A stretch of 64,000 nucleotides of DNA from a virus (lineage: Duplodnaviria; Caudoviricetes), in IMG/VR virus record IMGVR_UViG_3300037722_000745, positions 96,001 to 160,000 of that record; one strand, written 5' to 3'. The notes under the pieces were generated by a model. The model did not search any database. It was not told the origin of the DNA and saw only the letters and a list, made by a program, of their open reading frames with translations. This document shows, one piece after another, positions 15,862-46,006 of this stretch (within the stretch, counting starts at the first letter, position 1; each line of letters starts with the position of its first letter). The translations under genes were made by a program, and so were the position numbers.

Positions 15862-16623
15862 TTATTCAGCCAACTCAGAGTCTGCAAAGCGACGATTCCC
15901 GTAACCGTAGCCGGCTCCACGAAGAGTAGAGATGACTTGACTAGCTTGTTGTTTGGATAAAGTGACTAGCTGCTTTTGGTTAGGGATATGAGAAAACCCA
16001 GTCAAAACATCCAACCCTAAGTCGGACCATTCCTGATGCCCCTTGAGATCTCGTAAAAGTACGCGGATGAAGTTGATCTGCTTGGGTGTACTTTCACCTT
16101 TCAACTTGTCTAAAGGAACTTCACGCTGATACGTAGGTTGCGCCCCGTGCGATTCTTCTGCTCGTTCCCTCTCTTCACGCTTCTCCCGTGCGTCATCCTC
16201 ACGCATCTGACGCTCAGGGTCGCCCTTACGCTGACGAGTCTCCGCCCACTCCTCCCAGAAGTCTTCCCGGTTCTCGTACTTCTCTGCGAGTTCTTCAATG
16301 CGATCCTGAAGCTTGTTTTTCCAGCCCTGCGTCCTTTTGACAATAGGGGCCTTACCCCTCTCTAACGGTCCTTTGTCTTTCAGACTGATGAGCTGCACAC
16401 GGATAGCATCTGATCCAACACCCGCCCCTGTGCCTGAACGAGGGCTAATTGAGGACCATACACGGATACCAACGTGTCCGCCCAGCGTGAGGTCAAAGAT
16501 AATCTCCCCGTTTTTGATCCCCTCTCGAGGACGCAGAGCACGAAACCCTCTCTTGAGGAACTTCTCCATCTCCTCAAGAGTGATCTCCGTATACCGGGCA
16601 GCCATCGCAGTCTTTTGCGTCAT
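15862..16623 (-). CDS. Hypothetical phage protein
   Basis: 253-aa ORF whose start overlaps the helicase stop; no family recognised with confidence. Confidence 0.7.
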   Translation of the reverse strand: MTQKTAMAARYTEITLEEMEKFLKRGFRALRPREGIKNGEIIFDLTLGGHVGIRVWSSISPRSGTGAGVGSDAIRVQLISLKDKGPLERGKAPIVKRTQGWKNKLQDRIEELAEKYENREDFWEEWAETRQRKGDPERQMREDDAREKREERERAEESHGAQPTYQREVPLDKLKGESTPKQINFIRVLLRDLKGHQEWSDLGLDVLTGFSHIPNQKQLVTLSKQQASQVISTLRGAGYGYGNRRFADSELAE

Positions 16624-19600
16624 GACTGCCTCCGATCGTAGGCGGGGATGTCCCAGTCATCCGGGACGACACCTTCGTAGTCGTTTGAAGTTGCGGTCTT
16701 TGATCCCCCACTACCTGTATCCGCAGTTGGAGCACCGGGCTTCGGTACGTTCTCTCCGACCTTGAGACCCGCTTCATCCACAAAGGGACTAATACCCGCC
16801 GCTTTACCGCCAACCGAGGACGGACACACGACCGTCAAGTTCATCGCCGCTCGAGTGAGGGCCACATACCCAAGACGCCGCTCCGATTCCATCTCCTCTT
16901 TGACAACCTCCGGATCAGGCGGAGGCGCTCCAGGCTTCTGCGGTGGCGTAAAGGGGAACTTGCCCTTGGGCATCGAGACATAGCAGTTCTTCCATTGAGC
17001 GCCTTTGGTCCCGTGCGCCGTCCCGATATAGACACCCGGAGGCGGTTTCCGCTGTTCAGGAGGCAGAGCCGCCTGTTGTTTGTCCCACTTGGAAATGTCA
17101 ATGCGCAGCTCGCGAGCCTTGGCTGCATAACGCTCCATCTTGGATTTGAAACCGGACGGAGTGTTGGGATCATCAAGCAGGTCCCCTTCGTCCGTTGGAT
17201 CCTTCTTGGCCAATTCGAACAGGAAGCTGATATTCCCAAGACCCTCAGTCTCGTCTTCCTCCTCTTCAGTCGTGTCATCCTCATCCAAGCTGTCTCGGAG
17301 GTCCGCTTTCAGGCTGTCGCGGAAAGTCTGCTCGACGTATTCCGCACGGGCCGTGCGAGGGTTCGTTACAGCCACCGTGCCCGTCATCCCGAGGATGTCG
17401 TCAAACAACGCATAAGTCGTGTAAGACGGATCCGAGAGGTTCGCTTGCATGCGAGACAGCTCATCATGGATCTCATAGAGCTTCTCTACCGTCTTGTTGT
17501 ACTTGAAGCCACTACGCGAACGGGCCAGTTTCGCAGCCAGTGTTTCGACGAAACGCGAGTCCCCAAGAGCCTGGACAGGGTTGACCGACTTGAGATCTGA
17601 GTTCGTCTGGCGAGAGAAGTTCGCGAAAGCTTCTGAGACCGCACTCACGCCCGCATCTGGACCCACGAAAAAGCGATTGGGTTTGTTGATCACTTCCCCC
17701 AAGGCCGCCTGCATCTTCGCAAAGTTCGATCCCGTCACGAGCTGGACGTAACTCAAGAATGCCTTCGTCTCCGGAGACCCTAGGAAGCTCGATGTTCCCT
17801 TTCTCGCGTAAGGAACACCGCGAATGATACAAGCTGTCTCGTAAGCGTGTTGTTCTTTGTTCGTGCGAGTCAGGATGGCGTTGTCCGTGACCTCCCCGTC
17901 GGCCGCAAGTGACGCTTTGATCTCCTCGATCACATTGAGCGCAGCATCCGCCTCGTCAATCGCAGTTTCAACCCGGACCGAACCCACCCCACGAGTCTTC
18001 GATGGTGCTGGATTCGCCTCCAAGGGAATTTGATCCTCATTGTAGGCAATTAGGCGATTGGCAAGATCAACAATCTCAGGTTGACAACGATAGTTGGTGC
18101 GAATGACCCGCGTCTTCCAACCCTCAGCCTGCGACCTAGCAATGAAGATGTCCGGTCGTGCTCCTCGGAAGCCGTAAATGCTGTTGTGTGAGAGGATCCC
18201 CCCACCAAAAAAGTTGGAGGCGTCGTCAATGTCAAGATCGACGAACGTGCCAGGGACGGATTCAATGCCTGTGATCAGTTCCAGATCCAGACAGCCCCCC
18301 TCTAACACCGCGACTTGCATACCAACCATCAAGGATGATGCCGTGATCAGAGGCGCAGGACCCTCAGAAGTCGACAGCCTTTCCCTAACTGGCACACCCA
18401 ACGATCCCTGCAGCCGTTGGGCGAAATCCAGGCTATCGCGATAGTTGGTGAACCACTTGCGGAGGCGTCTACGTGCCCCACGCTTTTGAAACACAACACC
18501 CATTTCGTCAAGGCGTGCGTCCAAGTCATCACCGGACCACTCCAATCGAACCTGGGAACCCTTTGCGCCGTGTGCTGTTAGATTGATCAACCGACGTTGT
18601 GTGCTCCCTCTAGTGGTGGTACCGCACGCCATCCACACCGGCAGATCGAAACTCATACCTTTTGACTCTAGAATAGCCGCACCCTTACTACCGAACTTCG
18701 CGAACACGGCATCGACCCGGTCTTGATTGATCCCCCTCCCAACTCCATTAAATACCAGCGTGGGTACACCAAATTCCAAAGAATACTCAGCCTCTTTCAG
18801 AAGAGCCGATTCAAGATCCGACTCCACATTTAGAACCCACAACCGATCCGCCCTCTCATGGATCATCCGGGAGCCATAAGGGTTAGCATCCGAGCGGCCT
18901 CTATTTGTAACCCCCACACGAAACCCCACACCCTCTTTGTACATTAGGTAAACCAGATGTTGATCGTCTTCCAATTCTGGAGGTGTGGCCCAGATCTTAT
19001 GGTTGGGGCTCATTGTGAGCGTTCTTCCGCTTTCGGTTGTGACGAAAAGACCGTGTGTCCAGCTCGACGCTACGACATACTGTACCTTCTGGGGCACCAC
19101 ACAACCGTTCCGATAGGCTAGAACAAACTGCCCTTCACGAAGATCCCCCGCAGGAATCTCACCCTCCGGGGTCGCTACTAACGTACTGGTGGACACACAC
19201 TGGCGATCGTCCCCAACCATCCAAACCGACTTACCGTCAGATCCGTCAGTGACGTGCTCCGATATTAACTCAATGATGTCATTCTGAACCTGGTTGAGAT
19301 CTTGGCAGTTGTGGCTCAGTACCCCATTCCCGAAAAAATTCCCAGTGTCCTCTACAGTAATGTCGTAGAACACAACCCCTTCGATAGGCTCCAATGCCAC
19401 AATAGGATCAAGCCCAAATTTGGAGTCATCTCTGGCTCCTAGATCCTGCCCCGTAGCTGACAGATGGGCCTGCCTAATGGCTTCATATATAGAATAGTGG
19501 ACGCAACCCCTAACAGGGACTTGAATTCGATACTTGTCTGCTAGACGCCGGATCTCTTTACCACGCATGAAATTGACAACATTTTCGTTGTTGTCAATCC

Positions 19601-22145
19601 CAGACAGATGGATGGGGAGTTCCATTCCAACCTTCAGGGATCCTGCATTGGTTAGGACACAAGACTGCCCATTCACCAAGATGTCTTCTACTACATAGGC
19701 CCCGAGCGCTTGGGCCAAAGCGCGTGCAGCTTTAGACGCCATCACATACGACACATCGGACACACCCGTGGTCTTACGGACTCCTCCGTGAGTTAGGTAT
19801 ACTTTGCACCCGTCTGGGATAAGTGGTTCATTCTCACCCGCAGTCCAAGACACTGACGCTGTAGTCCGGCGCCCGAGAGATCTGTTCCCGTAACCCCCAG
19901 GACGGTGAGCATTGATCGAAACCACTTTACGATTAGTGTAACTAGAACTCACCCAATGCGGGAACTCTCTACTCAGGCCGTACAGTTCTAAGAGCTTCAG
20001 TCCATTCTGCCCGTACTTGGCGAATATCCGATCCGATAGGGCCTGGTCACACTTCCTGGGTTCCGCCTCAAAGATACGTGACGGGATTTGGTATTGGAGA
20101 GAGTATTCCAGCTCTTTGTACAACATTTCGGACTCTTCCCCAACCTCCAACACCCACAAGCAATCCGCCTTCTCCGTTCCCGCTCGATGCGACTTAAAAA
20201 CACCTGACGCTTGCGTAGATCTACCCAACAAATACGGTACGGTTGACACTCCGACGCGATACCCCATGTCCTTCCGGTACATGAGGTACAAGGCAAGTTC
20301 GTTCTCTCCAATGTCACAGGGATCAAAGCGTGTCGCGTACAACCTATGATCTAAGGTCATGGTCAAGCTGTAGCCAGATTTCGTGTGAGCAGTCACACCC
20401 GCGGTCTTTGAGCTGCGCTTTTTAGCTAGGACCTTCTTGAAAGTGGCGGAACCATTGCAATAGCTCAGGATCTCTTCGCCCACCTCCAACTCAGAAATTG
20501 CTTTACTTTCGCCAAATTTGGTAAGCACTTCGGTGCCCTCGTGAACACACTCATCGACAAGGATGTGATCAAACATCCCCTGAAGAGTTTTTTTAACCGG
20601 TGGCTCTCTTTTAAGGATGGCCAAGAACAATCCCAGCATGTCATCGAAATCGCCCAGACGTCCCCCATTAGGTCGCATACGAGCCATGAACGACTCATAC
20701 GCCTTGGAGGAACTGCAGGCTGGCTTCCAGCCGGGAATGGATCCTTTGAGGCCCTCGTACATCGCGTACCAGTCGGCAGCGTCACGCTCGTCCTGATCCT
20801 TGGCTTGCGCTTTTGCTTCCTCCGGAGAAACATTGTTTCCCGCCCACTTGGACTTCGCCATGAGGACGTTCTTGAGCTTGGGCACCTTACGCTCCTGGGG
20901 GGTCTCCGCCGGATAGCAATCAGCCCAAATACGCTGGACGGCTCGGGCCACCGAACCACCGCCCTGAACAAAGCCTCCGCGATCCTTACCCAGCCCCATC
21001 GCAGAACGCTCTTGAGCTGTCCCATACTCGCCAATGAACTTCCGAAACAGCGAGTGCATCGTGCCTACAGACATTTGATTAAGCGTGTCCCCGCTCGTGG
21101 CGGTACCAATCTTCTGTTTCAGCTCCCCCGCCGCCTTCGTGTTGAAGCTCGTCACCAACACGCGGGAAGGGTTGACCCGCCGATCCTTGATCAGGTACTC
21201 GACCCGCGAGACCACCGTCGTAGACTTGCCGGAACCGGCACCCGCCGCTACAAGGACCCGACCATCAGTGAGCGCTGCCGCCCGTTGTTCGTCGTCTAGC
21301 TTCTGAAGGGGCGTGGGTACATTGTTCGGGTTGTCAGGGTCTGACATGGCCGCAGCCACCGCGGCAGCCGCCATCCCAGCAACCTCAGACTTGGTGGGTG
21401 ATTCATCCGCTTCGCCCGAAACCGCCATCGACCGTTGAGCAGCCTCAGTTGCCTTCTCTTGGACCGTCGCAATGGCCTCATCCTTGGCGGCACCCGCCTC
21501 TTGACGCTCCTCCGAGGAGACTGAAGCTCCCTGTTGCTGCACACGCGTTGCTAACAGAGACTCGGTCTCTACCTCATCGGCACTTACCGCAACAGCATTC
21601 TGGTACGTGCCAGAACCGGCAGTCTCCGCCGCCACATCGATCCACTTCCGGAGCCGTTGGTTTCGCAGAGGGATCACCGCGAACTTGTCTAGCGCCGCAT
21701 CCGCATCGTCCATCATGGACGCTTCAATGGCCGCCTTGACAGCTCTTAGGGCTTTGTTCTGTTTGAAAATCGCCCGCATCGTAGAGGCCCCGCCACGGGA
21801 CAGAACCGTACGGATGTTGAACGTCCTACGAGCCAAACCAGCGGTGTTCGGTAGGAACCGAAACGCTTTGTCGACCATCTTCTTCTGACCGCTGGTTGGG
21901 ACAGCCTCGCCAAGAAACATCTGCACCGCTGCAAGATGCTGGCGATCCGCCAAGCGCACTAGCTGGATCCCTCGACGCACAAGGTCGTCAGCATGATCCT
22001 CCCCAGTCTCATCTTCGATGTATCGGGAATACGTATCAAGAGCCAACAAAAAGACGATGTATTCAGCGATCTCCAACTCGCCTATATCATCCTCTTCTTC
22101 CTCAGCTCCGACGCGCTCCACTACTCTCTCAGACAGGGTCGTCAT
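16620..22145 (-). CDS. uvrD: UvrD/Rep/PcrA superfamily-1 helicase with two inteins and an N-terminal extension
   Basis: Motifs AGAGSGKST, FNTKAAGEL, TMHSLF, DE|CQD, GDDRQ|SIYGFRGA, TNYRC, ILTRTN, TAHGTKG and ERRLGYVALTRA. Start placed at ATG 22145 after an AGGAG RBS. 1841-aa precursor, 1088 aa after splicing. Confidence 0.95.
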   Translation of the reverse strand: MTTLSERVVERVGAEEEEDDIGELEIAEYIVFLLALDTYSRYIEDETGEDHADDLVRRGIQLVRLADRQHLAAVQMFLGEAVPTSGQKKMVDKAFRFLPNTAGLARRTFNIRTVLSRGGASTMRAIFKQNKALRAVKAAIEASMMDDADAALDKFAVIPLRNQRLRKWIDVAAETAGSGTYQNAVAVSADEVETESLLATRVQQQGASVSSEERQEAGAAKDEAIATVQEKATEAAQRSMAVSGEADESPTKSEVAGMAAAAVAAAMSDPDNPNNVPTPLQKLDDEQRAAALTDGRVLVAAGAGSGKSTTVVSRVEYLIKDRRVNPSRVLVTSFNTKAAGELKQKIGTATSGDTLNQMSVGTMHSLFRKFIGEYGTAQERSAMGLGKDRGGFVQGGGSVARAVQRIWADCYPAETPQERKVPKLKNVLMAKSKWAGNNVSPEEAKAQAKDQDERDAADWYAMYEGLKGSIPGWKPACSSSKAYESFMARMRPNGGRLGDFDDMLGLFLAILKREPPVKKTLQGMFDHILVDECVHEGTEVLTKFGESKAISELEVGEEILSYCNGSATFKKVLAKKRSSKTAGVTAHTKSGYSLTMTLDHRLYATRFDPCDIGENELALYLMYRKDMGYRVGVSTVPYLLGRSTQASGVFKSHRAGTEKADCLWVLEVGEESEMLYKELEYSLQYQIPSRIFEAEPRKCDQALSDRIFAKYGQNGLKLLELYGLSREFPHWVSSSYTNRKVVSINAHRPGGYGNRSLGRRTTASVSWTAGENEPLIPDGCKVYLTHGGVRKTTGVSDVSYVMASKAARALAQALGAYVVEDILVNGQSCVLTNAGSLKVGMELPIHLSGIDNNENVVNFMRGKEIRRLADKYRIQVPVRGCVHYSIYEAIRQAHLSATGQDLGARDDSKFGLDPIVALEPIEGVVFYDITVEDTGNFFGNGVLSHNCQDLNQVQNDIIELISEHVTDGSDGKSVWMVGDDRQCVSTSTLVATPEGEIPAGDLREGQFVLAYRNGCVVPQKVQYVVASSWTHGLFVTTESGRTLTMSPNHKIWATPPELEDDQHLVYLMYKEGVGFRVGVTNRGRSDANPYGSRMIHERADRLWVLNVESDLESALLKEAEYSLEFGVPTLVFNGVGRGINQDRVDAVFAKFGSKGAAILESKGMSFDLPVWMACGTTTRGSTQRRLINLTAHGAKGSQVRLEWSGDDLDARLDEMGVVFQKRGARRRLRKWFTNYRDSLDFAQRLQGSLGVPVRERLSTSEGPAPLITASSLMVGMQVAVLEGGCLDLELITGIESVPGTFVDLDIDDASNFFGGGILSHNSIYGFRGARPDIFIARSQAEGWKTRVIRTNYRCQPEIVDLANRLIAYNEDQIPLEANPAPSKTRGVGSVRVETAIDEADAALNVIEEIKASLAADGEVTDNAILTRTNKEQHAYETACIIRGVPYARKGTSSFLGSPETKAFLSYVQLVTGSNFAKMQAALGEVINKPNRFFVGPDAGVSAVSEAFANFSRQTNSDLKSVNPVQALGDSRFVETLAAKLARSRSGFKYNKTVEKLYEIHDELSRMQANLSDPSYTTYALFDDILGMTGTVAVTNPRTARAEYVEQTFRDSLKADLRDSLDEDDTTEEEEDETEGLGNISFLFELAKKDPTDEGDLLDDPNTPSGFKSKMERYAAKARELRIDISKWDKQQAALPPEQRKPPPGVYIGTAHGTKGAQWKNCYVSMPKGKFPFTPPQKPGAPPPDPEVVKEEMESERRLGYVALTRAAMNLTVVCPSSVGGKAAGISPFVDEAGLKVGENVPKPGAPTADTGSGGSKTATSNDYEGVVPDDWDIPAYDRRQS
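18183..19199 (-). mobile_element. Intein 2 in UvrD motif III (339 aa)
   Basis: Starts C1 (CVSTSTLVATPEG), block B (MSPNHKIW), ends ILSHN, followed by Ser+1 of SIYGFRGA. Confidence 0.93.
19308..20549 (-). mobile_element. Intein 1 in the UvrD Walker B motif (414 aa)
   Basis: Starts C1 (CVHEGTEVLTKFG), block B (MTLDHRLY), ends VLSHN, followed by Cys+1 of CQD. Confidence 0.93.
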
Positions 22146-22183
22146 GCATTCCGCTCCTACTTGACTCAACCGCTAAAGAAAAA

Positions 22184-31945: not shown

Positions 31946-32980
31946 TCACTCCGCGTGTTCTTCCGTGGCTAGAATCAAAAGACCATCAGCTACCGCGGTC
32001 ATAGGGTTCGCAGCAGCTCGAATCTCACTGATCTCAATTGGAAACCCGCGCTTCTTGACGGACTCAAACTCATCCTTGAAGACTTCGAGGAAGCCTCCCG
32101 CCCGACTGGTGCCGCCAGAGATTACAAACGGCACTGGATCCGGAAGGTCTACTGTGGACTGGACCTTCCGAAATTGAACCGCAATGTTGTCCAAACAGTA
32201 CTTGATCAAAGCACGGATGTAGAGGGCGATAGCTTCTTCGTCCCGGTTCTTGGGATCCGCAAGGTTCACACCCTTCTCTTTGACCGCACACATCCGAGAA
32301 GCCGTCGAACCGGTTGCCTTAGCCGCATGCGTGTCGACCCAGTCCCCTCCCCGAGCCAGACTGAAATCCATACCCATCATCGCTTGGTACGCCAATGCGA
32401 TGTTACACATACCCGAACCGAAGCTGACTGCCAAACCAGAGAAACTCTCGTCCGCACACTGACTGTAGATGATCGCCATCGCCTCGTTCATTGGGTGGGG
32501 TGTGTACCCTAACTCCGACAAAATCTTTCGGAACACCTCAGTGTGATAGATGATGTCTTGGGTCTCGTCGTCGATAGGTGAGGCTGGGACACTGTAGAAG
32601 CAGTGCTCGCCCGTCGAAACGGGCTCTCCGATCACGTTGCCGATCAGCAGGCTCAAAATCTGTTGAGCGTCAAGCTCACCAGCGGAAATGACGCCGCGAC
32701 TGAGTGGGCGACGCACCTCCCGCTTGAAGAGATTAGCCATGTTGAGAGCTGAGTCGCCTAGGACGATGAGGTTGCCCTCATGCTCCACATAATCGACCTT
32801 GGACAAACGAAGAGTCTTCTTTGCCTCGGGATCGAGGTCGAGGAAGGCATCTCGAATCCGCTTGGTTTCAACCTTATCACTAGACGCCCACAACCGTCGA
32901 GCTGCGACAAGATTCATGGTGCCAACGTCGAGGCCCACAGCAGGGTTGTACTGACCTACATCTTCATCTTTTTTACTCAT
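31946..32980 (-). CDS. Actin-like ATPase (MamK/MreB/FtsA fold)
   Basis: 344 aa with phosphate-1 (GLDVGTMN), connect-1 (NEAMA), phosphate-2 (SFGSGMCN) and adenosine (ISGGTS) motifs. Confidence 0.85.
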   Translation of the reverse strand: MSKKDEDVGQYNPAVGLDVGTMNLVAARRLWASSDKVETKRIRDAFLDLDPEAKKTLRLSKVDYVEHEGNLIVLGDSALNMANLFKREVRRPLSRGVISAGELDAQQILSLLIGNVIGEPVSTGEHCFYSVPASPIDDETQDIIYHTEVFRKILSELGYTPHPMNEAMAIIYSQCADESFSGLAVSFGSGMCNIALAYQAMMGMDFSLARGGDWVDTHAAKATGSTASRMCAVKEKGVNLADPKNRDEEAIALYIRALIKYCLDNIAVQFRKVQSTVDLPDPVPFVISGGTSRAGGFLEVFKDEFESVKKRGFPIEISEIRAAANPMTAVADGLLILATEEHAE

Positions 32981-33001: not shown

Positions 33002-33931
33002 CTACAACCCTGTGCGGTCGTAGCTATACTCCAGCTTCCCGCCCCGTTGCTGAAGCAGGTAGAGGAACTCTTCGTGCTTGTCGGCGGCACCTTGGATTAG
33101 GTTGTCAGTGCCATCGGAAAGCTCACCACGCGCCTCAAGAGACTTACGGGCCTCTCCGATGCAATGGACCACACATCGCTCCACGTTAAGACTGGCCTCG
33201 ACCATACCCTCTGCTCCCAGCACACCAGGAGTCCCGCACCACAGCTGGATCAAAAAGCCCATGGACGAGATCTGTAGAGATGGGCTCACGAGCACTGCGT
33301 GCCCCGATCCTACCGCCCGTTCCGCCACCTGATCGATGAAGGTCTGAGAGTCCTCATAGATCCGCATGAACAGCAAGTGGTCTCCATAAAAATGGCCCCC
33401 TCGTGTCTGCCAATGGTGGCTCTGGTGGACGTGAGAAGCCGCACGCAAAATCGCCAGCAAGGCCCCCAACTCAGACATTGGGACCCCCTCGAATCTTTGG
33501 ACAAGCCCACTAAAGACCCCTCCGAATGATTCATGGGCCTCTTTCATCTGACCTTTCTCCGGAAGATATGGGGGGCCGTTGGTCTGACCATCAAAAGTCA
33601 GAGGATCGACCCAGATCGCGTGTATGGAATCCGCTGGCATTCTTACCTTCCAAGGATCCACCGAAGCCGTCTTGTCCCCACCATCCTCTCGCAGATCTTT
33701 CCCAACTTGCGATGGTGTGTGCTTCGTGGGCCGAGCCGTAAAGGTCTTCCCAGAGTAGGGGGACTTGATCGTGAGAACGCGCTCTTCCAAGTAGAAAACG
33801 CCCCCGTCTGGGTCAGTGTACTTCCACAGAAATGCCTGAGCCGCTGTCTTGGGTCGTTCAGAGGGCTTACCCGAGATCTGTTCGACGGTCCGAATGGCGT
33901 GGGTTAGGAGATTGGCTTGACGTGGGTGCAT
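33002..33931 (-). CDS. Dps/ferritin-like protein with an extra N-terminal domain
   Basis: C-terminal HWQTRGGHFYGDHLLFMRIYEDSQTFIDQVAER matches the Dps ferroxidase signature. Start uncertain (33931 or 33967). Confidence 0.8.
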   Translation of the reverse strand: MHPRQANLLTHAIRTVEQISGKPSERPKTAAQAFLWKYTDPDGGVFYLEERVLTIKSPYSGKTFTARPTKHTPSQVGKDLREDGGDKTASVDPWKVRMPADSIHAIWVDPLTFDGQTNGPPYLPEKGQMKEAHESFGGVFSGLVQRFEGVPMSELGALLAILRAASHVHQSHHWQTRGGHFYGDHLLFMRIYEDSQTFIDQVAERAVGSGHAVLVSPSLQISSMGFLIQLWCGTPGVLGAEGMVEASLNVERCVVHCIGEARKSLEARGELSDGTDNLIQGAADKHEEFLYLLQQRGGKLEYSYDRTGL

Positions 33932-33964
33932 GTCGAAGGGTGATCCTTTCCACGGTAGCCATAT

Positions 33965-33977
33965 CAAGAAAGCTTTA
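33965..33977 (-). promoter_or_regulatory. Putative late promoter variant TAAAGCTTTCTTG
   Basis: 10/13 identical to the 63623 copy; lies upstream of the Dps-like gene. Confidence 0.35.
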
Positions 33978-36964: not shown

Positions 36965-37591
36965 TCACCCCCCAATGAATTTTCTGGGTGTTAACACCCC
37001 CCGACCGGTATACGGACCGAAGGCACTCCGGATCCCAATGCCGAACCGAGGTTGCTGAAGGCCCTTGACAACATTGATAGTCGCCTTGGCCTGCTCAAGC
37101 TGCTTGTCGAACTGGTCGCTGGAGAACTGGGCGGCGGCTTCGTATTTGCTGGACTTCTCTAGATCTAGCGAGACGCCGCCGATGGAGTAAGAATTGTGGG
37201 CCAAGATCCCATTAGCGAGAACAAAATTTTCCGGACCGGGGACACACAAATCGTATGTGAAATCCTCTGGAGCCGATTTTTCAACTGAAACTACCGGCAC
37301 CGACTCCACTGCGTTCCCATTGACAACCACGACAGAATCCCCCGGGCTCAATTGACCTGCTTCTATCGGTTCAATTCCAGGTCCGACACATTGGAACAAG
37401 GAATGATCTTGCGTGGTTTCCACGGACCTACCGTCCACCAGTTTGGTTACCACGATAGGTCTAGACCCGTGTCTAACAACATCCGACACACGACTTTGCT
37501 TCACCTCACTCGTAGAAGGGTCCACGGACAGAACGCGCAGCCCACCCGACCAAAAGGCTTTCCGAATTTCCTCTCGGGTCTCTGAGTCCAT
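36965..37591 (-). CDS. Split-intein C-part (133 aa) fused to the 75-aa C-extein of a neck protein
   Basis: GAAGGAG RBS. Block B (ETTQDHSLF), block F (TYDLCV) and block G (LAHN), followed by Ser+1 (SYSIGGVSL). Intein part 37193-37591. Confidence 0.9.
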   Translation of the reverse strand: MDSETREEIRKAFWSGGLRVLSVDPSTSEVKQSRVSDVVRHGSRPIVVTKLVDGRSVETTQDHSLFQCVGPGIEPIEAGQLSPGDSVVVVNGNAVESVPVVSVEKSAPEDFTYDLCVPGPENFVLANGILAHNSYSIGGVSLDLEKSSKYEAAAQFSSDQFDKQLEQAKATINVVKGLQQPRFGIGIRSAFGPYTGRGVLTPRKFIGG

Positions 37592-38561
37592 CCTTCACTC
37601 CTTCTAACCGTTGTATTTCTCGGCGCACGCGACTCAGACAGTCATGCCAATCCATGTTTATCTCGTGTTCTCGAAGCCGTAAGATGCTCCACCCCCTAGC
37701 CTCCAGATAAGTGGTTTTACGCGCATCGTACACAAGAATAGAGCCCACCCCCGCGTGCCCACACACCACGCAACCGTGCCAGTAACAACCATCCACTTCC
37801 ACTGCCAACTGTAGCCGTGGAAGAGCCTCATCGATCGAGTAGTATCCAACCTCATACTCCGTCACGAACTCATCTAGCCCGGACGAGATCAATTCAGCCT
37901 TAACATAGCGGTGAAGCTTCGAGAACCTTCGTTTGATGTGGCTTCGAGCGTGCTGAGCTAATAACAAAGACCGCTCTCTGTTCTCAGCGTGCCATTTCGC
38001 TACTGCCTCTCTCTGAGAACCTGACTCCCAGCGAGCCTTAGACTCTACGCCTCTAGCTCTCCGGTGCTCAGGATCCTGATTCAATTTCCGTAAAAAGTCC
38101 GCAGCCACCTCACGATAACCCAGTTCATGGTGCAGCCGCTTTGAAGCAGTGCTGATCTGTCGCCGCGTTAAAGTACCCTCAGCGGTCTGGAAACGGACTT
38201 TAAGGGTTTCCGATTGATGTGACCGTTGAGCTTCAGTCTTGGATCTACGTGAGATTGTCAGGGACGACGCTAAAGGAGCTTGCGGGTGAGCCTTCTGGTA
38301 CTTGCTTAATGTCAGACCAGAACAAGCACGGAGGTGTTTAAGAGTGATAGACGCTTGTCTTGCCCCACACTCACAGCAGACCACAAAATGCTCGCCTTCT
38401 TGAAGAAGTCTCACACTCGCTTCTGCTACCCCATACCCCTTACGAGCTAAGATACCCTTCTCTAGCAATGTCCGCAAATGTTTCGCATTGAAACCAAAAT
38501 CGAGCGAAAGCTGTCTCTTAGAAATCGCTCCCTTCTCCAACTTGTACCGAGCCATCTTCAT
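37506..38561 (-). mobile_element. Free-standing Vsr/DUF559-like homing endonuclease gene between split-intein halves
   Basis: 351 aa. N-terminal HTH/Zn-ribbon (CCECG...HLRAC); C-terminal EYEVGYYSIDE...VEVDGCYWHG...YDARKTTYLEARGWSILRLREHEI. Confidence 0.85.
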
Positions 38562-39342
38562 ACAGAAGATCGTACAAATCCTTTATAGGTAGAGTGATTC
38601 GTCGGTTACCCGGCAGCACAACAGTGACTTCCGTTCGGCCTGTAATACTGAATTCGTCAGCGATCCAATTGATTCGCAGGGCGTTGAGCGCGTGGATCAT
38701 CGCCCCGGTCAGCAAGAGGGTTCGCCACTCAGGCCGATACGACACCATCTGATCGATGCTCGAGAATGGGGTTCGAGGTGGAGATGCAGCGATCATGTCG
38801 AGCGCTCGCAAGAGGTACTCTTGCAGCTCCACGTCCTCCCAGATGTAGCCGAAGACCCGGCTGAACTGCTGGACTGTTTCCTCGTGGCTAGGTGGCCTGA
38901 AATGATAATTTCGGTCCGGATTCGAGTCTCGAAGGAGAATCCTAAGCCTACCCATCAAATTCAGCTCAGTCACGGAAGCACTCAGAGCACTGCCCGTGAT
39001 CATGCTCGCACTCGGAGTCGACAAACCCGCCTTGTCAATGACGGAGAACTCTTGCACCACCTGCTGAATCGATCCACCCACGACTTCCCTGAAGGTCCAT
39101 CGGATGCGGTAGTCTCCTAGGTTTGCATCCAGCGGAACCACGATAGAGGCGTAGTATTCCCCGACCGAAGGGTTGGCAGGCTCGCGCTCCGGAACACCGA
39201 TCAGGACTTCAGCCCCCGTGGTGAAGTCATAGAGGGCGTACGAGATCTCAGCCGCGTTAACCGGAGTGTTCGCAGCATTAACCAGAAAGATGTTGAGATC
39301 GTTCCGGCCGAGCTGTTGCCCTCTGTAGTAGGTGACGCTCAA
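38518..39342 (-). CDS. Neck/head-tail adaptor N-extein (231 aa) fused to a split-intein N-part (43 aa)
   Basis: After ...NWIADEF the ORF ends with block-A-like SITGRTEVTVV...IKDLYDLL (38518-38649). Joining the exteins gives DEF|SYSIGGVSL. Confidence 0.85.
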   Translation of the reverse strand: MSVTYYRGQQLGRNDLNIFLVNAANTPVNAAEISYALYDFTTGAEVLIGVPEREPANPSVGEYYASIVVPLDANLGDYRIRWTFREVVGGSIQQVVQEFSVIDKAGLSTPSASMITGSALSASVTELNLMGRLRILLRDSNPDRNYHFRPPSHEETVQQFSRVFGYIWEDVELQEYLLRALDMIAASPPRTPFSSIDQMVSYRPEWRTLLLTGAMIHALNALRINWIADEFSITGRTEVTVVLPGNRRITLPIKDLYDLLYEDGSVQVGEGSDF

Positions 39343-40699: not shown

Positions 40700-41455
40700 T
40701 CAATCCCATCCGAATTTACAATACCGTTCTAGTGTGTCTCCAGGGATCGGACACGAGACCGAATCCTGAACTTGGAAGTAGCAGTCGCTCTCCACTACAG
40801 GATCCCCATAGATTCTTTGGTGCTGCCAACGGACGGCCCACAAGCCTGGCTGCCCGCACTCGCCCGCAGTACCGGTCACGTAATAGCAGCCAACCCCCGC
40901 CGTGGCCGGCTTGCGGCCCGACGGTCCGATTTGCTTGAGAACGCAGCCCGGCTGCATCTGGTAGAGCGTGTAGGTGATGCAAACCGGACCAAATGGGTTA
41001 CCCCGACCATCGACCACCTTGAACATGAGGTCGCCTCGCGTGAAGACGTGACCCCAGCGGAAAGCTGTTGTAACGACTGGCTGCTGACAGATCGGCGGCG
41101 AGACATGGATGACTTCCATGTGCGCTGTCAAAATGCCCACCCCAACAATGGGATCCGGGACCGAAAAAGCGAACGCCCCCTGACCGCTTAGATAGCCACT
41201 GGCCCCTAGAATCACCTGTGCATCGGCTGAGATGCTACTCCCACCGGAAATAGCCCCCCCAGCGTCCAACAAAGTCTCATCGAGAAGAACTCCCGAACCG
41301 ACCAGATAACCCGAGGAATCAAGGATCTTCTCAGCATCAGCCGAGACGGCAGCGGACCCGACAAAAGATCCAGACAGAATCAGGTCGAGACCTGGACCAG
41401 CGCCTAAACCCCCCAGACCCGCTGCAACAACTCCGGCTGGCGCTACCCCAGACAT
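40700..41455 (-). CDS. Virion protein with a C-terminal Ig-like domain paralogous to the neck N-extein
   Basis: 251 aa. RGDLMF...ITYTLY...VGCYY...AVRW parallels RNDLNIF...ISYALY...VGEYY...RIRW in the 39342 ORF. Confidence 0.6.
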   Translation of the reverse strand: MSGVAPAGVVAAGLGGLGAGPGLDLILSGSFVGSAAVSADAEKILDSSGYLVGSGVLLDETLLDAGGAISGGSSISADAQVILGASGYLSGQGAFAFSVPDPIVGVGILTAHMEVIHVSPPICQQPVVTTAFRWGHVFTRGDLMFKVVDGRGNPFGPVCITYTLYQMQPGCVLKQIGPSGRKPATAGVGCYYVTGTAGECGQPGLWAVRWQHQRIYGDPVVESDCYFQVQDSVSCPIPGDTLERYCKFGWD

Positions 41456-43482
41456 CAGTCGTATTCAGAGTACCCCAGCAAGAGGTACCCAGTCCCATCC
41501 ACCGAAGCATACTCATAGGTGGTTTCGAAGACCGCATCTGGTGCCGCTGGTTGAGTCCCAGAAACAAGAACCGTTCTCCCAGCCGCCACAAAACTGACCA
41601 CATGACCCCCGGAACCGTCATTCACAAACAACACTCGACCACCGTACCCGTCCGCACCATTGGTCAGCGTGAGGGTGGTGTCCCCAGACAGACAGTCTAA
41701 CATCTGCCAATTGTTCCGCTCTCTGACATCCAGTGTCACACTGGACGAGTACGCAAAAGTACCACGCTTATGCTGCTCAGCGGCATACACGATCTCGGTT
41801 TCATTGGTCTCTAGTCTAGAGATCACACCACCGCTAGCGTGTGGTGCCTTCGATTCTGCAAAGCCTGCTTGGTTAGTGGCCAAGTCGGACCATGAAAAGG
41901 TCTCTTGGCTAAGATGGCAGTCTCCTTTGTCTCCAGTGAGATTGGGGTTACCGAACTCCAAACTAATGTGGCCACCAGAAGCCGCATTGAGCCCAAACCA
42001 CTCACTGTGGCCATGGGGACCGTAGTTGTTATTGAAAATCTTGATCGTACCTGGGAATAGAGCCCGGACAGCACTACCGGACGTGATGTAGCTGAACACT
42101 CCATTGCTCAGCACAACCTTCGGACCCGTCGTATACAACCGGCAGCGGTCGAACAGAAACGGAACCGTACAGAACCCAATCTCAAAAAAAGCGACCGTGG
42201 TTATACGGATCTGGACCTCAGCTTCTCCTCCATCCAATCCGCCAATCCTCCCTCCGATCAGCGTGCACTTGAATGGATCCAAGGCTGACGCAAAGATACC
42301 ATTCCCCGCGTGCAAGATACCGTAGAAGTTCACCCCTCCATCTAGTCTCATGTTCTGCTTGACATAGGTTCCCCATCCAAGCCAGGCGGAGTTGACGGAG
42401 CTACCACTCAACTCTTCACGGGCAAAGTAACCGCTTAATAGTGAGGTACCCTCGTAACCCAAACGGGCCTCATCATCTACGCGAACTCCATGCATAGTCA
42501 CGGTGCTCGCCGAGAAAGTCAGATAGGTGAAAGGGGTGTCCGCCGTAAAGCTAACGTTCGAAATAGCCACTCCAAGCGGCAATTCCTCATTCGGCTTCTG
42601 GAACACCTGATGATGCCCGGGTCCGAACCCAACGGTGAATGGGAAATTGGTCGCAGGACCACCGACGTCAATCTTGACCGCAGCCTTCACAATCCGGAAC
42701 GTGTCTCCAGCATCCAAGACAGCGGGAAACCAGTAGGCCGGCAGGACAACCAAATCGTCGGTAGACCAAGCCTGTTCGGCGTAATCAGACGACGCCTGAT
42801 AGAAAGTTTTCCCTCCATTGGATGTGCCACTAAGGACTTCGACTTTGGCTGCATCGATCTCCTGAACACTATCCGCGTCCTTAGCCCGCTCCCATGATCC
42901 CGTTCGAACGATGTGGATACCGCTCTCAGCTGCCGTGGTTTGGCCTGGGCATAGAACACGATCTCCATCGGAGAGGGCTACGCCATCAACCGTCTGCTCT
43001 CCACTCAGTGTCAAACTCTCCGTGGCAGCAGCGGCTACAGGCTTCTTTCTCTGGTAGCCTCGAATCGTCCGCCTAGCTGAGCTGTTGAGTGCGTTGGTAG
43101 TGCTTACGGCTTCGAGTGTGCAGTCTTGGTACTCGTCACTACCTACAGACTCTGTCAAGACGAGACGTTCCCGAGTTGAAGCTGCGGAAGCTGTCAAGCC
43201 TGTCGCAAGCTCCTCAAAGTCCTCCCCACGGAATACAAGAGTGCCCGTCGCCGTGAACCGGCTGCCATCAAATGGTAGCAAGGGGCGGAGGATCGTCCCA
43301 TCCCCTAACAGATGTACAACGCACTGACGAATACCGAAGTGCTGCTCTAGCTCTACCCGCAGCTTCTCTAGTCCTTCCTCCGGACCCCAAGGACTCGCCT
43401 CGCTACCGTCTCCGCTTTCGGATGACTCATTGGAGTCAATCCAAAACTCAAGATCCCCAGCACCAATCTTCAATGAACCCAT
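41455..43482 (-). CDS. Fibre/tailspike-like protein (paralog B)
   Basis: Contains LEFWID...G...PWG and the LSGEQTVDGVALSDGDRVL fibre motif. Start placed at MGSLKIG. Confidence 0.6.
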   Translation of the reverse strand: MGSLKIGAGDLEFWIDSNESSESGDGSEASPWGPEEGLEKLRVELEQHFGIRQCVVHLLGDGTILRPLLPFDGSRFTATGTLVFRGEDFEELATGLTASAASTRERLVLTESVGSDEYQDCTLEAVSTTNALNSSARRTIRGYQRKKPVAAAATESLTLSGEQTVDGVALSDGDRVLCPGQTTAAESGIHIVRTGSWERAKDADSVQEIDAAKVEVLSGTSNGGKTFYQASSDYAEQAWSTDDLVVLPAYWFPAVLDAGDTFRIVKAAVKIDVGGPATNFPFTVGFGPGHHQVFQKPNEELPLGVAISNVSFTADTPFTYLTFSASTVTMHGVRVDDEARLGYEGTSLLSGYFAREELSGSSVNSAWLGWGTYVKQNMRLDGGVNFYGILHAGNGIFASALDPFKCTLIGGRIGGLDGGEAEVQIRITTVAFFEIGFCTVPFLFDRCRLYTTGPKVVLSNGVFSYITSGSAVRALFPGTIKIFNNNYGPHGHSEWFGLNAASGGHISLEFGNPNLTGDKGDCHLSQETFSWSDLATNQAGFAESKAPHASGGVISRLETNETEIVYAAEQHKRGTFAYSSSVTLDVRERNNWQMLDCLSGDTTLTLTNGADGYGGRVLFVNDGSGGHVVSFVAAGRTVLVSGTQPAAPDAVFETTYEYASVDGTGYLLLGYSEYD

Positions 43483-43495
43483 GGCTTGTCCCTTC

Positions 43496-46006
43496 TTAAA
43501 GCGCTCCAACAATCACATAAGCAGTGCTAGCGATCGTCACGTAGTGATACCGAAGCTCAAATACATCATTGGGGCCAGACGGAACCGTTCCTTTGACGAC
43601 GACCGTTCTACCGCTGGCGACCACGGTGATCACTCGACCTCCGACAGCATCTTGCTGCCCCAAGATGCTGCCTTTCCAACCGTCTACCCCATTCGTCAGA
43701 GTGACAGCCATATCCCCCGTGGCTACATCGCTCAACGCCCAGTCATTACCGATGCGTAGGTCCAAAGTCGGGGTGGCTGCGAATGCGAACGACTGAACAA
43801 CGGTCCTTCTACCGCCTCGGACTCCAACCACGCCGGGTATCCGATAGATGTAAGCGCCTGTGACATAAGGCTCAGAGAAGTCCCCTACCCCTTGGCCCGT
43901 CCCAGAGAATTCGTAGTCCGTCCACAACCCCTGATTAGACTGAACACGCCAGTCCGCCACGTCCCCAGTCAGATTAGGATTGCCATTCTCCAGCTGACAC
44001 CTGCCACCGGATAGGCAGTCAACTCCTACATCCGTAGAGTGACCACTCACGCCGGAGATCAGTTTTGCTTGCCCAGGAGCGAAAACATGTACGGCTGGAG
44101 CACCTTCGATCCACGAAAACAGGGTCCCTCCGGTAGAAAATAAAGCGTTCATCTTTACCGATGGGCCTGTGGTGGATATTCGAGACCGATCGAACAACAC
44201 AGGCACCCGAGAAGAGGTGATGACAAACGACGCTTCGCGCACAATCCTCATCTCGACTATACCTTGACCGCCTCCGCTGCCCCCGATTCGACCACCTTCC
44301 AGCTCAACGTAAAACGGTTGCTCTGAGTTAGCAAATAAACCATTTTCCAAGATGACGTGACCAAACAGCTTTGCGCCGATGTCGTTGTTGAAGTTCTGGA
44401 CATGCCGAAACCCCCACCCCCTCCACGTATTAAAGGATGCCGTACCTGTAAGCCCAGAGTAAGATGCTGTCCCCGACATCATGGTTCCAGAAGGAGCCCG
44501 AAATCTAACTTGACCGATGAAGTCTACTCCCCAGATGGACACGGTTGAACGATCGCAACCCAGCACGGCAAACACGCTTGAGTTCACAGCGAGATTGATC
44601 AGAGTGATGCCAGGAGGGTACTCTCCGGTAGCAAACGCCAGCGTGTCCTCCTGTGTCCCTGAGTAAAAGCCATCGCAAAAAGCGATGGTACTCGCCTGTG
44701 CAGCACCACCAGGAAGCTCAAGCGTTGCTGCGGGCTCGACAACTCTGAACGTGTCCCCGGCCTGGGGAGAACTCGGCCACTCGTAAGACGGGACAACAAC
44801 CCGATCGACGGTTGTCCACGATTGAGTGCTAAAGCTGACCGAAGACTGGTAAAAGGTGGACCCTCCATTGACCGTGCCCCCTGACACACTGACGCTCGCA
44901 GCGGTCACTTCCGCGATACTGTCGGCATCTCTAGCCCGTTCCCACGCGCCAGTTCGAACGATGTAGATGCCGATCTCAGAAGCCGTTGCTTGAACAGGAG
45001 CCAGGCAACGGTTGCCATCCACTAGGGCCACATCATCGACCGTTTGGGCCCCGGACAAGGTCAAGCTCACCGTGGCCGCAGCGTCTACTGGGCGCTTGCG
45101 TTGGTAGCCTCGAATGCGGCGGCGAGTACCGGCATTCGCCCCGGTAATACCCTCCAGACTGGCATTGCCAAGAGCAGCGGTACCGTAATCAGAGTCAAGC
45201 ACGGCTTGAGTGACATCCGAACCTGTGCCAACCGTAACGGACGCAAGCTCAACGAAGTCTTCACCTATGAAGATTAGGCTCCCCGTGGACCCAAACGGAG
45301 CACCATCAAACGGCTGGGCTTGCCTGGGTAGTGACCCAGACCCCATGATGTGGACTTCACACCGATCGATCCGAACATACTTTCGAAGCTCGGACCAGAG
45401 GGCCTCCATGCCCTCATTACCGCCCCAGGGGTCAGCCTGGGTGCCGCTGCCCGCGCCCCCAGGGTCGTCCGTATCGATCCAGAACTCTAGGGTCCCAGCC
45501 GCCCCAATAACGCCCTCCAACTGCTCCACCGTGCGACGGTAGAAGGGGTGGTAGCCACGAACCGACCCTCCGACGTTACGTTCCGTGACTAAAGCAACCC
45601 CAGGACCGTTGTTGAAAAGTGATGCATCCGGATCCCCCCTCTCACCGAGGGCTGGGTAATGCAAGGCGTAGTTAGGGCTAGCGATACTTGCGATGCGACG
45701 AACTTTCTCAACAGCCGCATCAGGCAGAGTTCGTTCTAATTCAATCCTGAAAGGACCGTAGACTGGAGCCGAAAAGGTGATTTGCCATAGGGTTGGCGTG
45801 ATCTCCACTATCGAGGAGTTCGCCCCTTCGGGCTCATCCGCAATCCGCACAACATCCGTCGCCCCTACCACAGGATCTGTGATGGTGATCTCGATGGGAT
45901 ATCCAACACCCCCTCCTGCGTCCTCTCCGGAGATGTCTTCCCTAGCTTCTCCTGGAGTACCTGGAGGGATCCCCGCAGTAGGCTGGTCAATTTGAAACAC
46001 CGGCAT
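43496..46006 (-). CDS. Fibre/tailspike-like protein (paralog A)
   Basis: 836 aa, colinear with the downstream paralog (LEFWIDTDD...PWG; LSGAQTVDDVALVDGNRCL). Confidence 0.6.
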   Translation of the reverse strand: MPVFQIDQPTAGIPPGTPGEAREDISGEDAGGGVGYPIEITITDPVVGATDVVRIADEPEGANSSIVEITPTLWQITFSAPVYGPFRIELERTLPDAAVEKVRRIASIASPNYALHYPALGERGDPDASLFNNGPGVALVTERNVGGSVRGYHPFYRRTVEQLEGVIGAAGTLEFWIDTDDPGGAGSGTQADPWGGNEGMEALWSELRKYVRIDRCEVHIMGSGSLPRQAQPFDGAPFGSTGSLIFIGEDFVELASVTVGTGSDVTQAVLDSDYGTAALGNASLEGITGANAGTRRRIRGYQRKRPVDAAATVSLTLSGAQTVDDVALVDGNRCLAPVQATASEIGIYIVRTGAWERARDADSIAEVTAASVSVSGGTVNGGSTFYQSSVSFSTQSWTTVDRVVVPSYEWPSSPQAGDTFRVVEPAATLELPGGAAQASTIAFCDGFYSGTQEDTLAFATGEYPPGITLINLAVNSSVFAVLGCDRSTVSIWGVDFIGQVRFRAPSGTMMSGTASYSGLTGTASFNTWRGWGFRHVQNFNNDIGAKLFGHVILENGLFANSEQPFYVELEGGRIGGSGGGQGIVEMRIVREASFVITSSRVPVLFDRSRISTTGPSVKMNALFSTGGTLFSWIEGAPAVHVFAPGQAKLISGVSGHSTDVGVDCLSGGRCQLENGNPNLTGDVADWRVQSNQGLWTDYEFSGTGQGVGDFSEPYVTGAYIYRIPGVVGVRGGRRTVVQSFAFAATPTLDLRIGNDWALSDVATGDMAVTLTNGVDGWKGSILGQQDAVGGRVITVVASGRTVVVKGTVPSGPNDVFELRYHYVTIASTAYVIVGAL

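Follow-up and report, generated by a model that had tools for sequence, protein, structure and literature searches.

We analysed a 64,000-nt (nucleotide) stretch of a huge uncultured phage, taken from the metagenome-assembled virus record IMGVR_UViG_3300037722_000745; this whole stretch is called the window below, and positions are those of the window unless stated otherwise. On its minus strand, from 39342 to 36965, three overlapping open reading frames (ORFs), each in a different frame, hold the two halves of a gene for a predicted head-tail connector, each half attached to one part of an intein, together with a putative homing-endonuclease gene lying between them. The features of this locus are as follows (aa, amino acids).

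39342..38518, minus strand: N piece, an ORF of 274 aa that starts with TTG, preceded by GAGGGG, made up of the 231-aa N-extein and a further 43 aa
38650..39342, minus strand: N-extein of the predicted head-tail connector gene, 231 aa, C-terminal ...NWIADEF
38521..38649, minus strand: intein N-fragment, 43 aa from SITGRTEV, with Ser1, block A, two strands, helix alpha1 (IKDLYDLL) and a tail of about 12 aa
37506..38561, minus strand: putative free-standing homing-endonuclease gene, 351 aa, DUF559/Vsr-like
37591..36965, minus strand: C piece, an ORF of 208 aa, made up of a 133-aa intein C-fragment and a 75-aa C-extein
37193..37591, minus strand: intein C-fragment, 133 aa, with helix alpha2, the RH of the NX motif, TQDH, YDLCVPGPENF and AHN
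36968..37192, minus strand: C-extein, 75 aa from the +1 Ser (SYSIGG; SYSIGGVSLDLEK...), followed by a stop codon at 36965-36967

The N piece runs through ...NWIADEF into SITGRTEVTVVLPGNRRITLPIKDLYDLLYEDGSVQVGEGSDF and stops at 38518-38520, the last 12 or so residues of its intein fragment overlapping the start of the nuclease gene. The nuclease ORF (38561..37506) overlaps the N piece by 44 nt and the C piece by 86 nt; an ATG at 38555, giving 349 aa, is an alternative start and the likelier one, because the orthologues align from the third residue of the 351-aa ORF. The C piece begins at an ATG with AGGAG 7 nt upstream, and its intein part carries block B (TQDH), block F (YDLCVPGPENF) and block G (AHN), ending in ...NGILAHN. 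A preliminary description made from the sequence alone had given the same coordinates and contents for the two split ORFs and had assigned the downstream one its own ribosome-binding site, and all of this was reproduced when the ORFs and boundaries were recomputed. It had also suggested that particle assembly could be timed by trans-splicing. This suggestion finds no support in the locus: a promoter and terminator scan found no signal above shuffled controls and nothing separating the three ORFs, which, together with the overlaps, points to co-expression. A programmed frameshift into one intein-nuclease polypeptide was rejected on account of the three frames and the 44- and 86-nt overlaps.

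The two outer ORFs correspond to a single conserved protein. A search with the 231-aa N-extein returned 1168 relatives, and most of the best 120 were uninterrupted proteins of 296-306 aa with up to 90% identity, which covered 100% of the N-extein; the C-extein was identical to the C-termini of intact homologues at 53-62 of its 75 residues. Joining the two parts (231 + 75 aa) yields the 306-aa protein proposed in the preliminary description, and this protein aligned without a gap to 113 intact homologues, including the 16 columns around the junction. Thus, two co-oriented ORFs are colinear with uninterrupted homologues, the upstream one ending in the N part of an intein and the downstream one opening with the C part, as in the fractured genes of Dassa et al. 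(2009, PMC2677866). Around the junction, E230, F231, Y233, G236 and G237 are invariant in the 113 intact homologues, which indicates that the intein is seated in the most conserved motif of the protein (NWIADEF|xYSIGG). Insertion into the most conserved motif of the host protein is typical of inteins. The predicted junction peptide of the spliced connector is INWIADEFSYSIGGVSLDLEK. At the would-be +1 position (232), the intact homologues have Asp in 76 cases, Asn in 20, Ser in 13, Gly in two, and Thr and Glu in one each, whereas the split allele has Ser. The 13 intein-free alleles that carry Ser, against Asp or Asn in 96, are an observation of their own: this Ser may have been left behind when an intein was precisely lost, or it may mark alleles pre-adapted to invasion.

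A single polypeptide might also arise if the intervening 1.4 kb were removed as RNA, in the manner of an intron, or skipped by recoding. Vsr-like nucleases do occur in group I introns as well (Dassa et al. 2009, PMC2677866); nevertheless, the translated sequences on either side of the intervening region are halves of an intein and run colinear with contiguous ones, and the three ORFs lie in three frames. A search of the locus against Rfam returned no match even at E<=1, and the intron reading was rejected because of this result; as a whole, removal or skipping of the region is very improbable.

The intein itself was recognised from both of its parts. The C piece matched, in Pfam, the family Intein_splicing over positions 18-155 of the 155-position profile (1e-12); in the PDB, the solved Pho RadA mini-intein over chain residues 54-167 of 168 (4.7e-12); and, in NCBIfam, intein_Cterm (1.9e-7). 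The partial coverage of the Pfam profile and of Pho RadA indicated that the C piece lacks exactly the N-terminal part of an intein, and the N part is colinear in the alignment with block A and alpha1 of contiguous alleles. That alignment comprised 15 alleles, namely three split inteins and the twelve contiguous same-site inteins obtained from an exhaustive search with the C piece. The sequence features of class 1 inteins are all present in the window (Ser1, TQDH of block B, the block F Asp in YDLCV, AHN and the +1 Ser), as are those of cysteine-independent Ser1 inteins (Ser1 with Ser/Thr at +1 and an Arg/Lys-His pair upstream of block B). The latter pair is the NX motif, which characterises Ser1/Ser(Thr)+1 inteins (Pasch et al. 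2023, PMC10189870); an Arg or Lys stands before its His in 13 of the 15 alleles, and the window reads VVRHG. The intein is therefore, as judged from its residues, of the Ser1/Ser+1 type. It has two cysteines, both non-catalytic, and the allele of L001, one of the other split loci described below, has none.

Residue conservation also bears on how the two halves would work. It is conceivable that they function without ligation, with the intein fragments serving as docking domains of a two-chain connector, and a precedent for a fragmented phage protein exists in the ribonucleotide reductase large-subunit gene nrdA (PMC3045599). Across the 15 alleles, however, overall identity is only about 35-45%, and Ser1, the NX-motif His about 20 residues before block B, T-x-D-H-S, Y-D, N-F, A-H-N and the Ser/Thr at +1 are nevertheless invariant. 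Several of these residues (Ser1, the NX His, the block B Thr, Asp and His, the terminal His-Asn and the +1 Ser/Thr) are needed only for the chemistry, and their invariance disfavours the non-covalent alternative; the Ser at +1 of the split allele, where most intact alleles have Asp or Asn, speaks against it as well. We consider such docking without ligation quite improbable.

The fold and the break point were located on a relative. An AlphaFold2 model of the contiguous allele P0129:219-384, which is a relative's intein rather than the two halves in the window, formed a HINT domain with a predicted local distance difference test score (pLDDT) of 94.3 and template-modelling scores of 0.75-0.79 to solved inteins; the closest solved structures were mini-inteins, the cysteine-less Aes123 PolB1 intein among them. 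The order of elements in this model is strand, strand, alpha1 (IKELYRIC, residues 25-32), a six-residue loop, alpha2 (39-45) and the rest of the fold. Placed on the model through the alignment, the breaks of all three split alleles fall in the loop between alpha1 and alpha2, the length of which varies by 0-40 residues among contiguous alleles. The N-fragments are 31-32 aa long in L001 and L002 and 43 aa in the window, including the tail of about 12 aa. Since the other fractured alleles stop at 31-32 aa, the functional N-fragment of the window is probably about 30 aa; thus, the 43-aa fragment of the preliminary description was right in length and position, and its last part is better regarded as a tail. 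Known atypically split inteins have N-fragments of 15-37 aa, and a break after alpha1 defines the S2 type (PMC13014065). With its short N-fragment and its break after alpha1, the intein of the window has the features of an S2-type atypical split.

The fractured arrangement recurs in other genomes. In six further homologues (252-267 aa), the sequence breaks off at the corresponding point, after a diverged N-fragment of roughly 30 aa. Two of these truncated N pieces were traced, to L001 (a 434-kb JGI contig) and to L002 and L003 (ENA contigs). In L001-L003, the N piece (about 261 aa) precedes a DUF559/MTES_1575 nuclease (about 320 aa), which is followed in turn by a C piece (about 207 aa) that bears an intein domain; the ORFs overlap by 20-26 nt. 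Whole C pieces are 56-60% identical across the fractured alleles, the intein part being visibly less conserved than the extein part. Three allelic states were observed in syntenic contigs: an empty, intein-free allele (L018), contiguous mini-inteins of 157-196 aa at the same site (L019/P0136 with 167 aa, P0129 and others) and fractured alleles (the window, L001 and L002). In these contigs the connector gene is followed by genes for a 446-473-aa protein, a ferritin-like protein and an actin-like protein. In the window, the latter two are an archaeal-type actin homologue of 344 aa (Volactin in Pfam, 6.5e-74) and an adjoining ferritin/Dps-like protein (31946-32980 and 33002-33967, both on the minus strand), a pair that is kept downstream of the connector gene in L002, L018 and L019.

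Further states were found in other metagenomes. In P0143 (519 aa), the nuclease, the intein C-fragment and the C-extein are encoded as one in-frame fusion, and P0141 and P0142 show the same fusion in part; by its composition, this fusion looks like an intermediate between a free-standing and an intein-nested nuclease. A second insertion site lies further upstream in the connector family (LRDN|[S/C]PDRNYHF), where inteins are split at the same alpha1/alpha2 loop in P0148 and P0152; P0121, P0123 and P0126 combine a split at this second site with a contiguous intein at site b, and P0131 has contiguous inteins at both sites. The gene in the window is uninterrupted at the second site. Taken together, these alleles are the intermediates postulated by the gene-breaking model of Dassa et al.

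Recurrence also bears on the quality of the assembly. The window is part of a metagenome-assembled record, so that a chimera or a frameshift error could in principle have produced the broken gene. At least five metagenome runs, from sediment and soil, contained the stretch, and no RNA-sequencing run did. Contigs from three runs other than the likely sources bridged both gene junctions with 0 substitutions or indels; no form deleted for the intervening region occurred among the matching contigs of these three runs. Together with the orthologous layouts in unrelated samples, the identity of these contigs settles the concern about a frameshift artefact raised in the preliminary description and leaves an assembly error hardly credible.

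Between the two halves lies the free-standing endonuclease ORF, a further element of the Dassa-type arrangement. The encoded protein matched DUF559 (7e-7) and MTES_1575 (1.4e-5) in Pfam and DUF559 in NCBIfam (4.7e-8), and it matched Vsr models only weakly, with values below the cut-off (Pfam Vsr 0.053; NCBIfam TIGR00632 0.0013). In the search against PDB sequences the sole match was 3HRL (2.7e-4), and no solved homing endonuclease was matched. The protein contains the catalytic motif D-x10-E-x-DGCYWH, followed by ...YDARKTTYLEARGW, and the spacing of the motif reproduces that of Vsr Asp51, position 62 and Phe67-Trp68-His69; downstream, YDARK supplies an Asp that may be the equivalent of Vsr Asp97. 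Vsr-like homing endonucleases have an invariant Glu at the position of Vsr Phe62 (Dassa et al. 2009, PMC2677866), and the Glu of the motif found here is the one described. The motif is kept in the orthologues of L001 and L002, which are 44-48% identical, and the gene is single-copy in the genome. Because the spacing of the Vsr catalytic residues is retained, the Glu included, the nuclease looks active, and it would act in homing. Membership in the family of Vsr-like homing endonucleases is probable rather than proven, given that the Vsr-model scores were below the cut-off and no solved homing endonuclease was matched. With this grading, the Vsr-like endonuclease noticed between the halves in the preliminary description agrees with the DUF559 matches, the weak Vsr matches and the catalytic spacing, and the architecture together with the nuclease motif bears out its assignment of the locus to the Dassa type of fractured gene. 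At residues 55-80 or so (38330-38400, minus strand), the nuclease also has a C-x2-C...H-x3-C motif (VVCCECGARQASITLKHLRAC) that is kept in L001 and L002; it resembles zinc fingers of the Ros/MucR type, and this N-terminal motif may be a DNA-recognition module.

The identity of the host protein was approached through its homologues and through structure models. The extein matched no family in Pfam or NCBIfam, the N piece of the window alone matched none of the PHROGs, and a profile of the connector alignment A1 found nothing below E 0.4 among PDB sequences. When 64 intact homologues were scanned singly, 50 of them matched phrog_17327, 'head-tail connector protein' (best E 9.9e-8), over residues 171-269, a region that spans the intein site. 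In the Tunturiibacter phage Tunturi_5 (309 kb), a 31% identical homologue is annotated 'head-tail connector protein' and precedes, at a short distance, the genes for the tail terminator and the sheath. An AlphaFold2 model of the intact homologue P0002 (90% identical; pLDDT 71) contained an N-terminal beta-sandwich (residues 1-105), a helical domain (124-266) and a conserved, unmodelled C-terminal tail. In an exhaustive structural comparison with VIA-align, the helical domain matched only neck and adaptor chains among the 50 matches listed; twelve such chains covered it at Z 7.5-9.5, led by Pa223 (9.5), cyanophage A4 (9.1), GP4 (8.9) and the T4 gp13/gp14 neck (8.8), with further matches to SU10, KHP30, B2, Carin-1, VP1, HRP29, phage 812 and phiCD508. 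For the beta-sandwich, the matches were to macroglobulin and Ig-like domains. Foldseek was uninformative on function, as generic Ig/macroglobulin-like matches of the N-terminal domain dominated against the PDB and only uncharacterised phage proteins were matched in BFVD. In both sequence and fold, the protein thus resembles known adaptors, and we conclude from the profile matches and the model that it is a head-tail connector (adaptor), in line with the neck protein named in the preliminary description. As an adaptor, it would form a ring on the portal in the virion. Two genes upstream, a 251-aa ORF (40700-41455, minus strand) shares the N-terminal beta-sandwich of the connector (28% identity, E 4e-5).

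Several observations weigh against this account of the locus. P0002, the nearest homologue of the window, reached only E 0.059 with phrog_17327; its model falls below pLDDT 50 at the insertion site; the Z values are mid-range for a helical domain, so that the connector argument is carried by the specificity of the match list and not by the scores; the record is about 68% complete, and a second connector gene elsewhere in the genome is possible; and trans-splicing of the halves in the window is a step that we infer. The completeness estimate is also what would favour a broken, non-functional gene, either in a defective phage or in one that uses another, unrecognised connector, since other genes may be missing. 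On the other hand, none of the three ORFs is interrupted, and they are maintained in several genomes that are independent and diverged; the identical sequence occurs in several samples, and a search of the 323-kb record (estimated completeness 68%) gave no further copy of the connector gene. A dead gene is decidedly improbable on these grounds, and because no second copy was found in the record, the phage would appear to depend on the split gene.

We therefore hold, with high confidence, that this locus is a fractured connector gene, the halves of which are joined by split-intein trans-splicing, and in which the nuclease maintains or spreads the element. The following sequence of events is proposed. 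A Ser1/Ser+1 mini-intein would have invaded a single connector gene at NWIADEF|xYSIGG, and a free-standing Vsr-like nuclease gene would then have been placed in the variable loop after the first helix of the intein. The three overlapping ORFs are probably co-transcribed and translationally coupled. After translation, the N-fragment of about 30 aa would dock on the C-fragment and complete the HINT fold, and oxyester trans-splicing, with Ser1, Ser+1 and Asn cyclisation, would join ...DEF to SYS... to give the 306-aa connector, which could then assemble on the portal. When relatives co-infect, the nuclease most likely propagates the element by cleaving their intein-free alleles. The trans-splicing might even be put to use, either as a checkpoint that delays head completion until both halves have accumulated or as a weapon in mixed infections, in which intein-free relatives would have their neck gene cut by the nuclease and their connector rings poisoned by unspliced halves; we regard such a use as quite unlikely. 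If it were true, the inteins of connector, portal and protease would make up one linked module, selfish or competitive, in these huge phages.

The genes for the terminase large subunit (TerL), the portal and the prohead protease lie upstream of the connector gene on the same strand of the same genome, and two of them, just past the end of the window, carry inteins.

L017:1633-5910 (G000:C1:159633-163910), minus strand: prohead protease, phrog_18299, with a LAGLIDADG-type intein
L017:9903-13181 (G000:C1:167903-171181), minus strand: portal, phrog_16240 (2.7e-24), with a LAGLIDADG-type intein

TerL (L017:15463-17475) had no intein-family match. Inteins are thus concentrated in the morphogenesis genes of this phage. 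A 1849-aa ORF (16620-22169, minus strand) also contains, at about 19308-19403, an intein C-terminal splicing motif. Two adjacent large proteins (41455-43512 and 43496-46006, both on the minus strand) have in common a domain of about 90 aa, for which the PHROG matches (1e-17 to 1e-20) are to head-decoration, virion-structural and tail-fibre families. A 562-aa protein (6023-7711, minus strand) has a Peptidase_M15/VanY domain and endolysin PHROG matches, and a protein of this type indicates a bacterial host with peptidoglycan.

Fractured genes and split inteins have been known from nucleic-acid enzymes; these results would add a structural protein of the virion, one that every particle needs. The natural series of alleles, with empty, contiguous and nuclease-fused forms and a second site, allows the gene-breaking model of Dassa et al. 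for how split inteins arise to be tested by comparison and experiment, and Ser1/Ser+1 inteins with an N-fragment of about 30 aa, one of them cysteine-free, would suit protein semisynthesis under oxidising conditions. In the literature covered, which was partial and is no proof of novelty, no intein in a neck or adaptor protein was found, only cases in portal, terminase and polymerase proteins. Within that coverage, the view of the preliminary description that a split neck protein had not been reported holds, although inteins of a virion protein, the portal, have already been published (PMC5050341).

The hosts reported by Dassa et al. (2009, PMC2677866) were the gp41 helicase, IMPDH, DnaE, NrdA, NrdJ, a ligase, a terminase and one unknown protein, and half of these loci carry Vsr-like nucleases. 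Those hosts are enzymes of DNA synthesis, repair and packaging apart from the unknown one, whereas the host in the window is a predicted virion connector, the family of which shows the full series of empty, contiguous, split and nuclease-fused states. The terminase locus of that study resembles the window in its unusual break point, its 122-aa C part lacking only motif N1 (PMC2677866). The same holds for the S2-split inteins of AceL TerL and GOS TerL, which have a short N-fragment and a break after the first alpha-helix (PMC13014065); AceL TerL, however, is cysteine-dependent and GOS TerL is of the Ser1/Cys+1 type, whereas the intein of the window is Ser1/Ser+1 and interrupts a different extein. 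A split PolB intein has been reported in a jumbo phage (PMC6892783). The PolB16 OarG intein (Pasch et al. 2023, PMC10189870) shares with the window a natural atypical split, Ser1 with Ser/Thr at +1 and the Arg/Lys-His NX motif, but it is an S1 split after strand beta2 with a 15-aa N-fragment in a DNA polymerase, as opposed to an S2 split with an N-fragment of about 30 aa. According to a 2026 paper, no natural intein other than PolB16 is known to be both cysteine-less and atypically split (PMC13014065); with the cysteine-free allele of L001, the family of the window would be a second type, S2 and not S1. The portal inteins of mycobacteriophages likewise occupy a low-copy virion protein at the head-tail junction, but they are contiguous, whereas the connector intein is split (Kelley et al. 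2016, PMC5050341). Finally, the host protein is like T4 gp13 and the podophage adaptors of the T7 gp11 type in its superposable helical domain (residues 124-278, Z 8.8-9.5) and in its relation to phrog_17327; compared with them, its family adds the macroglobulin/Ig-like beta-sandwich at residues 1-105, shows about 10% identity and has no Pfam family.

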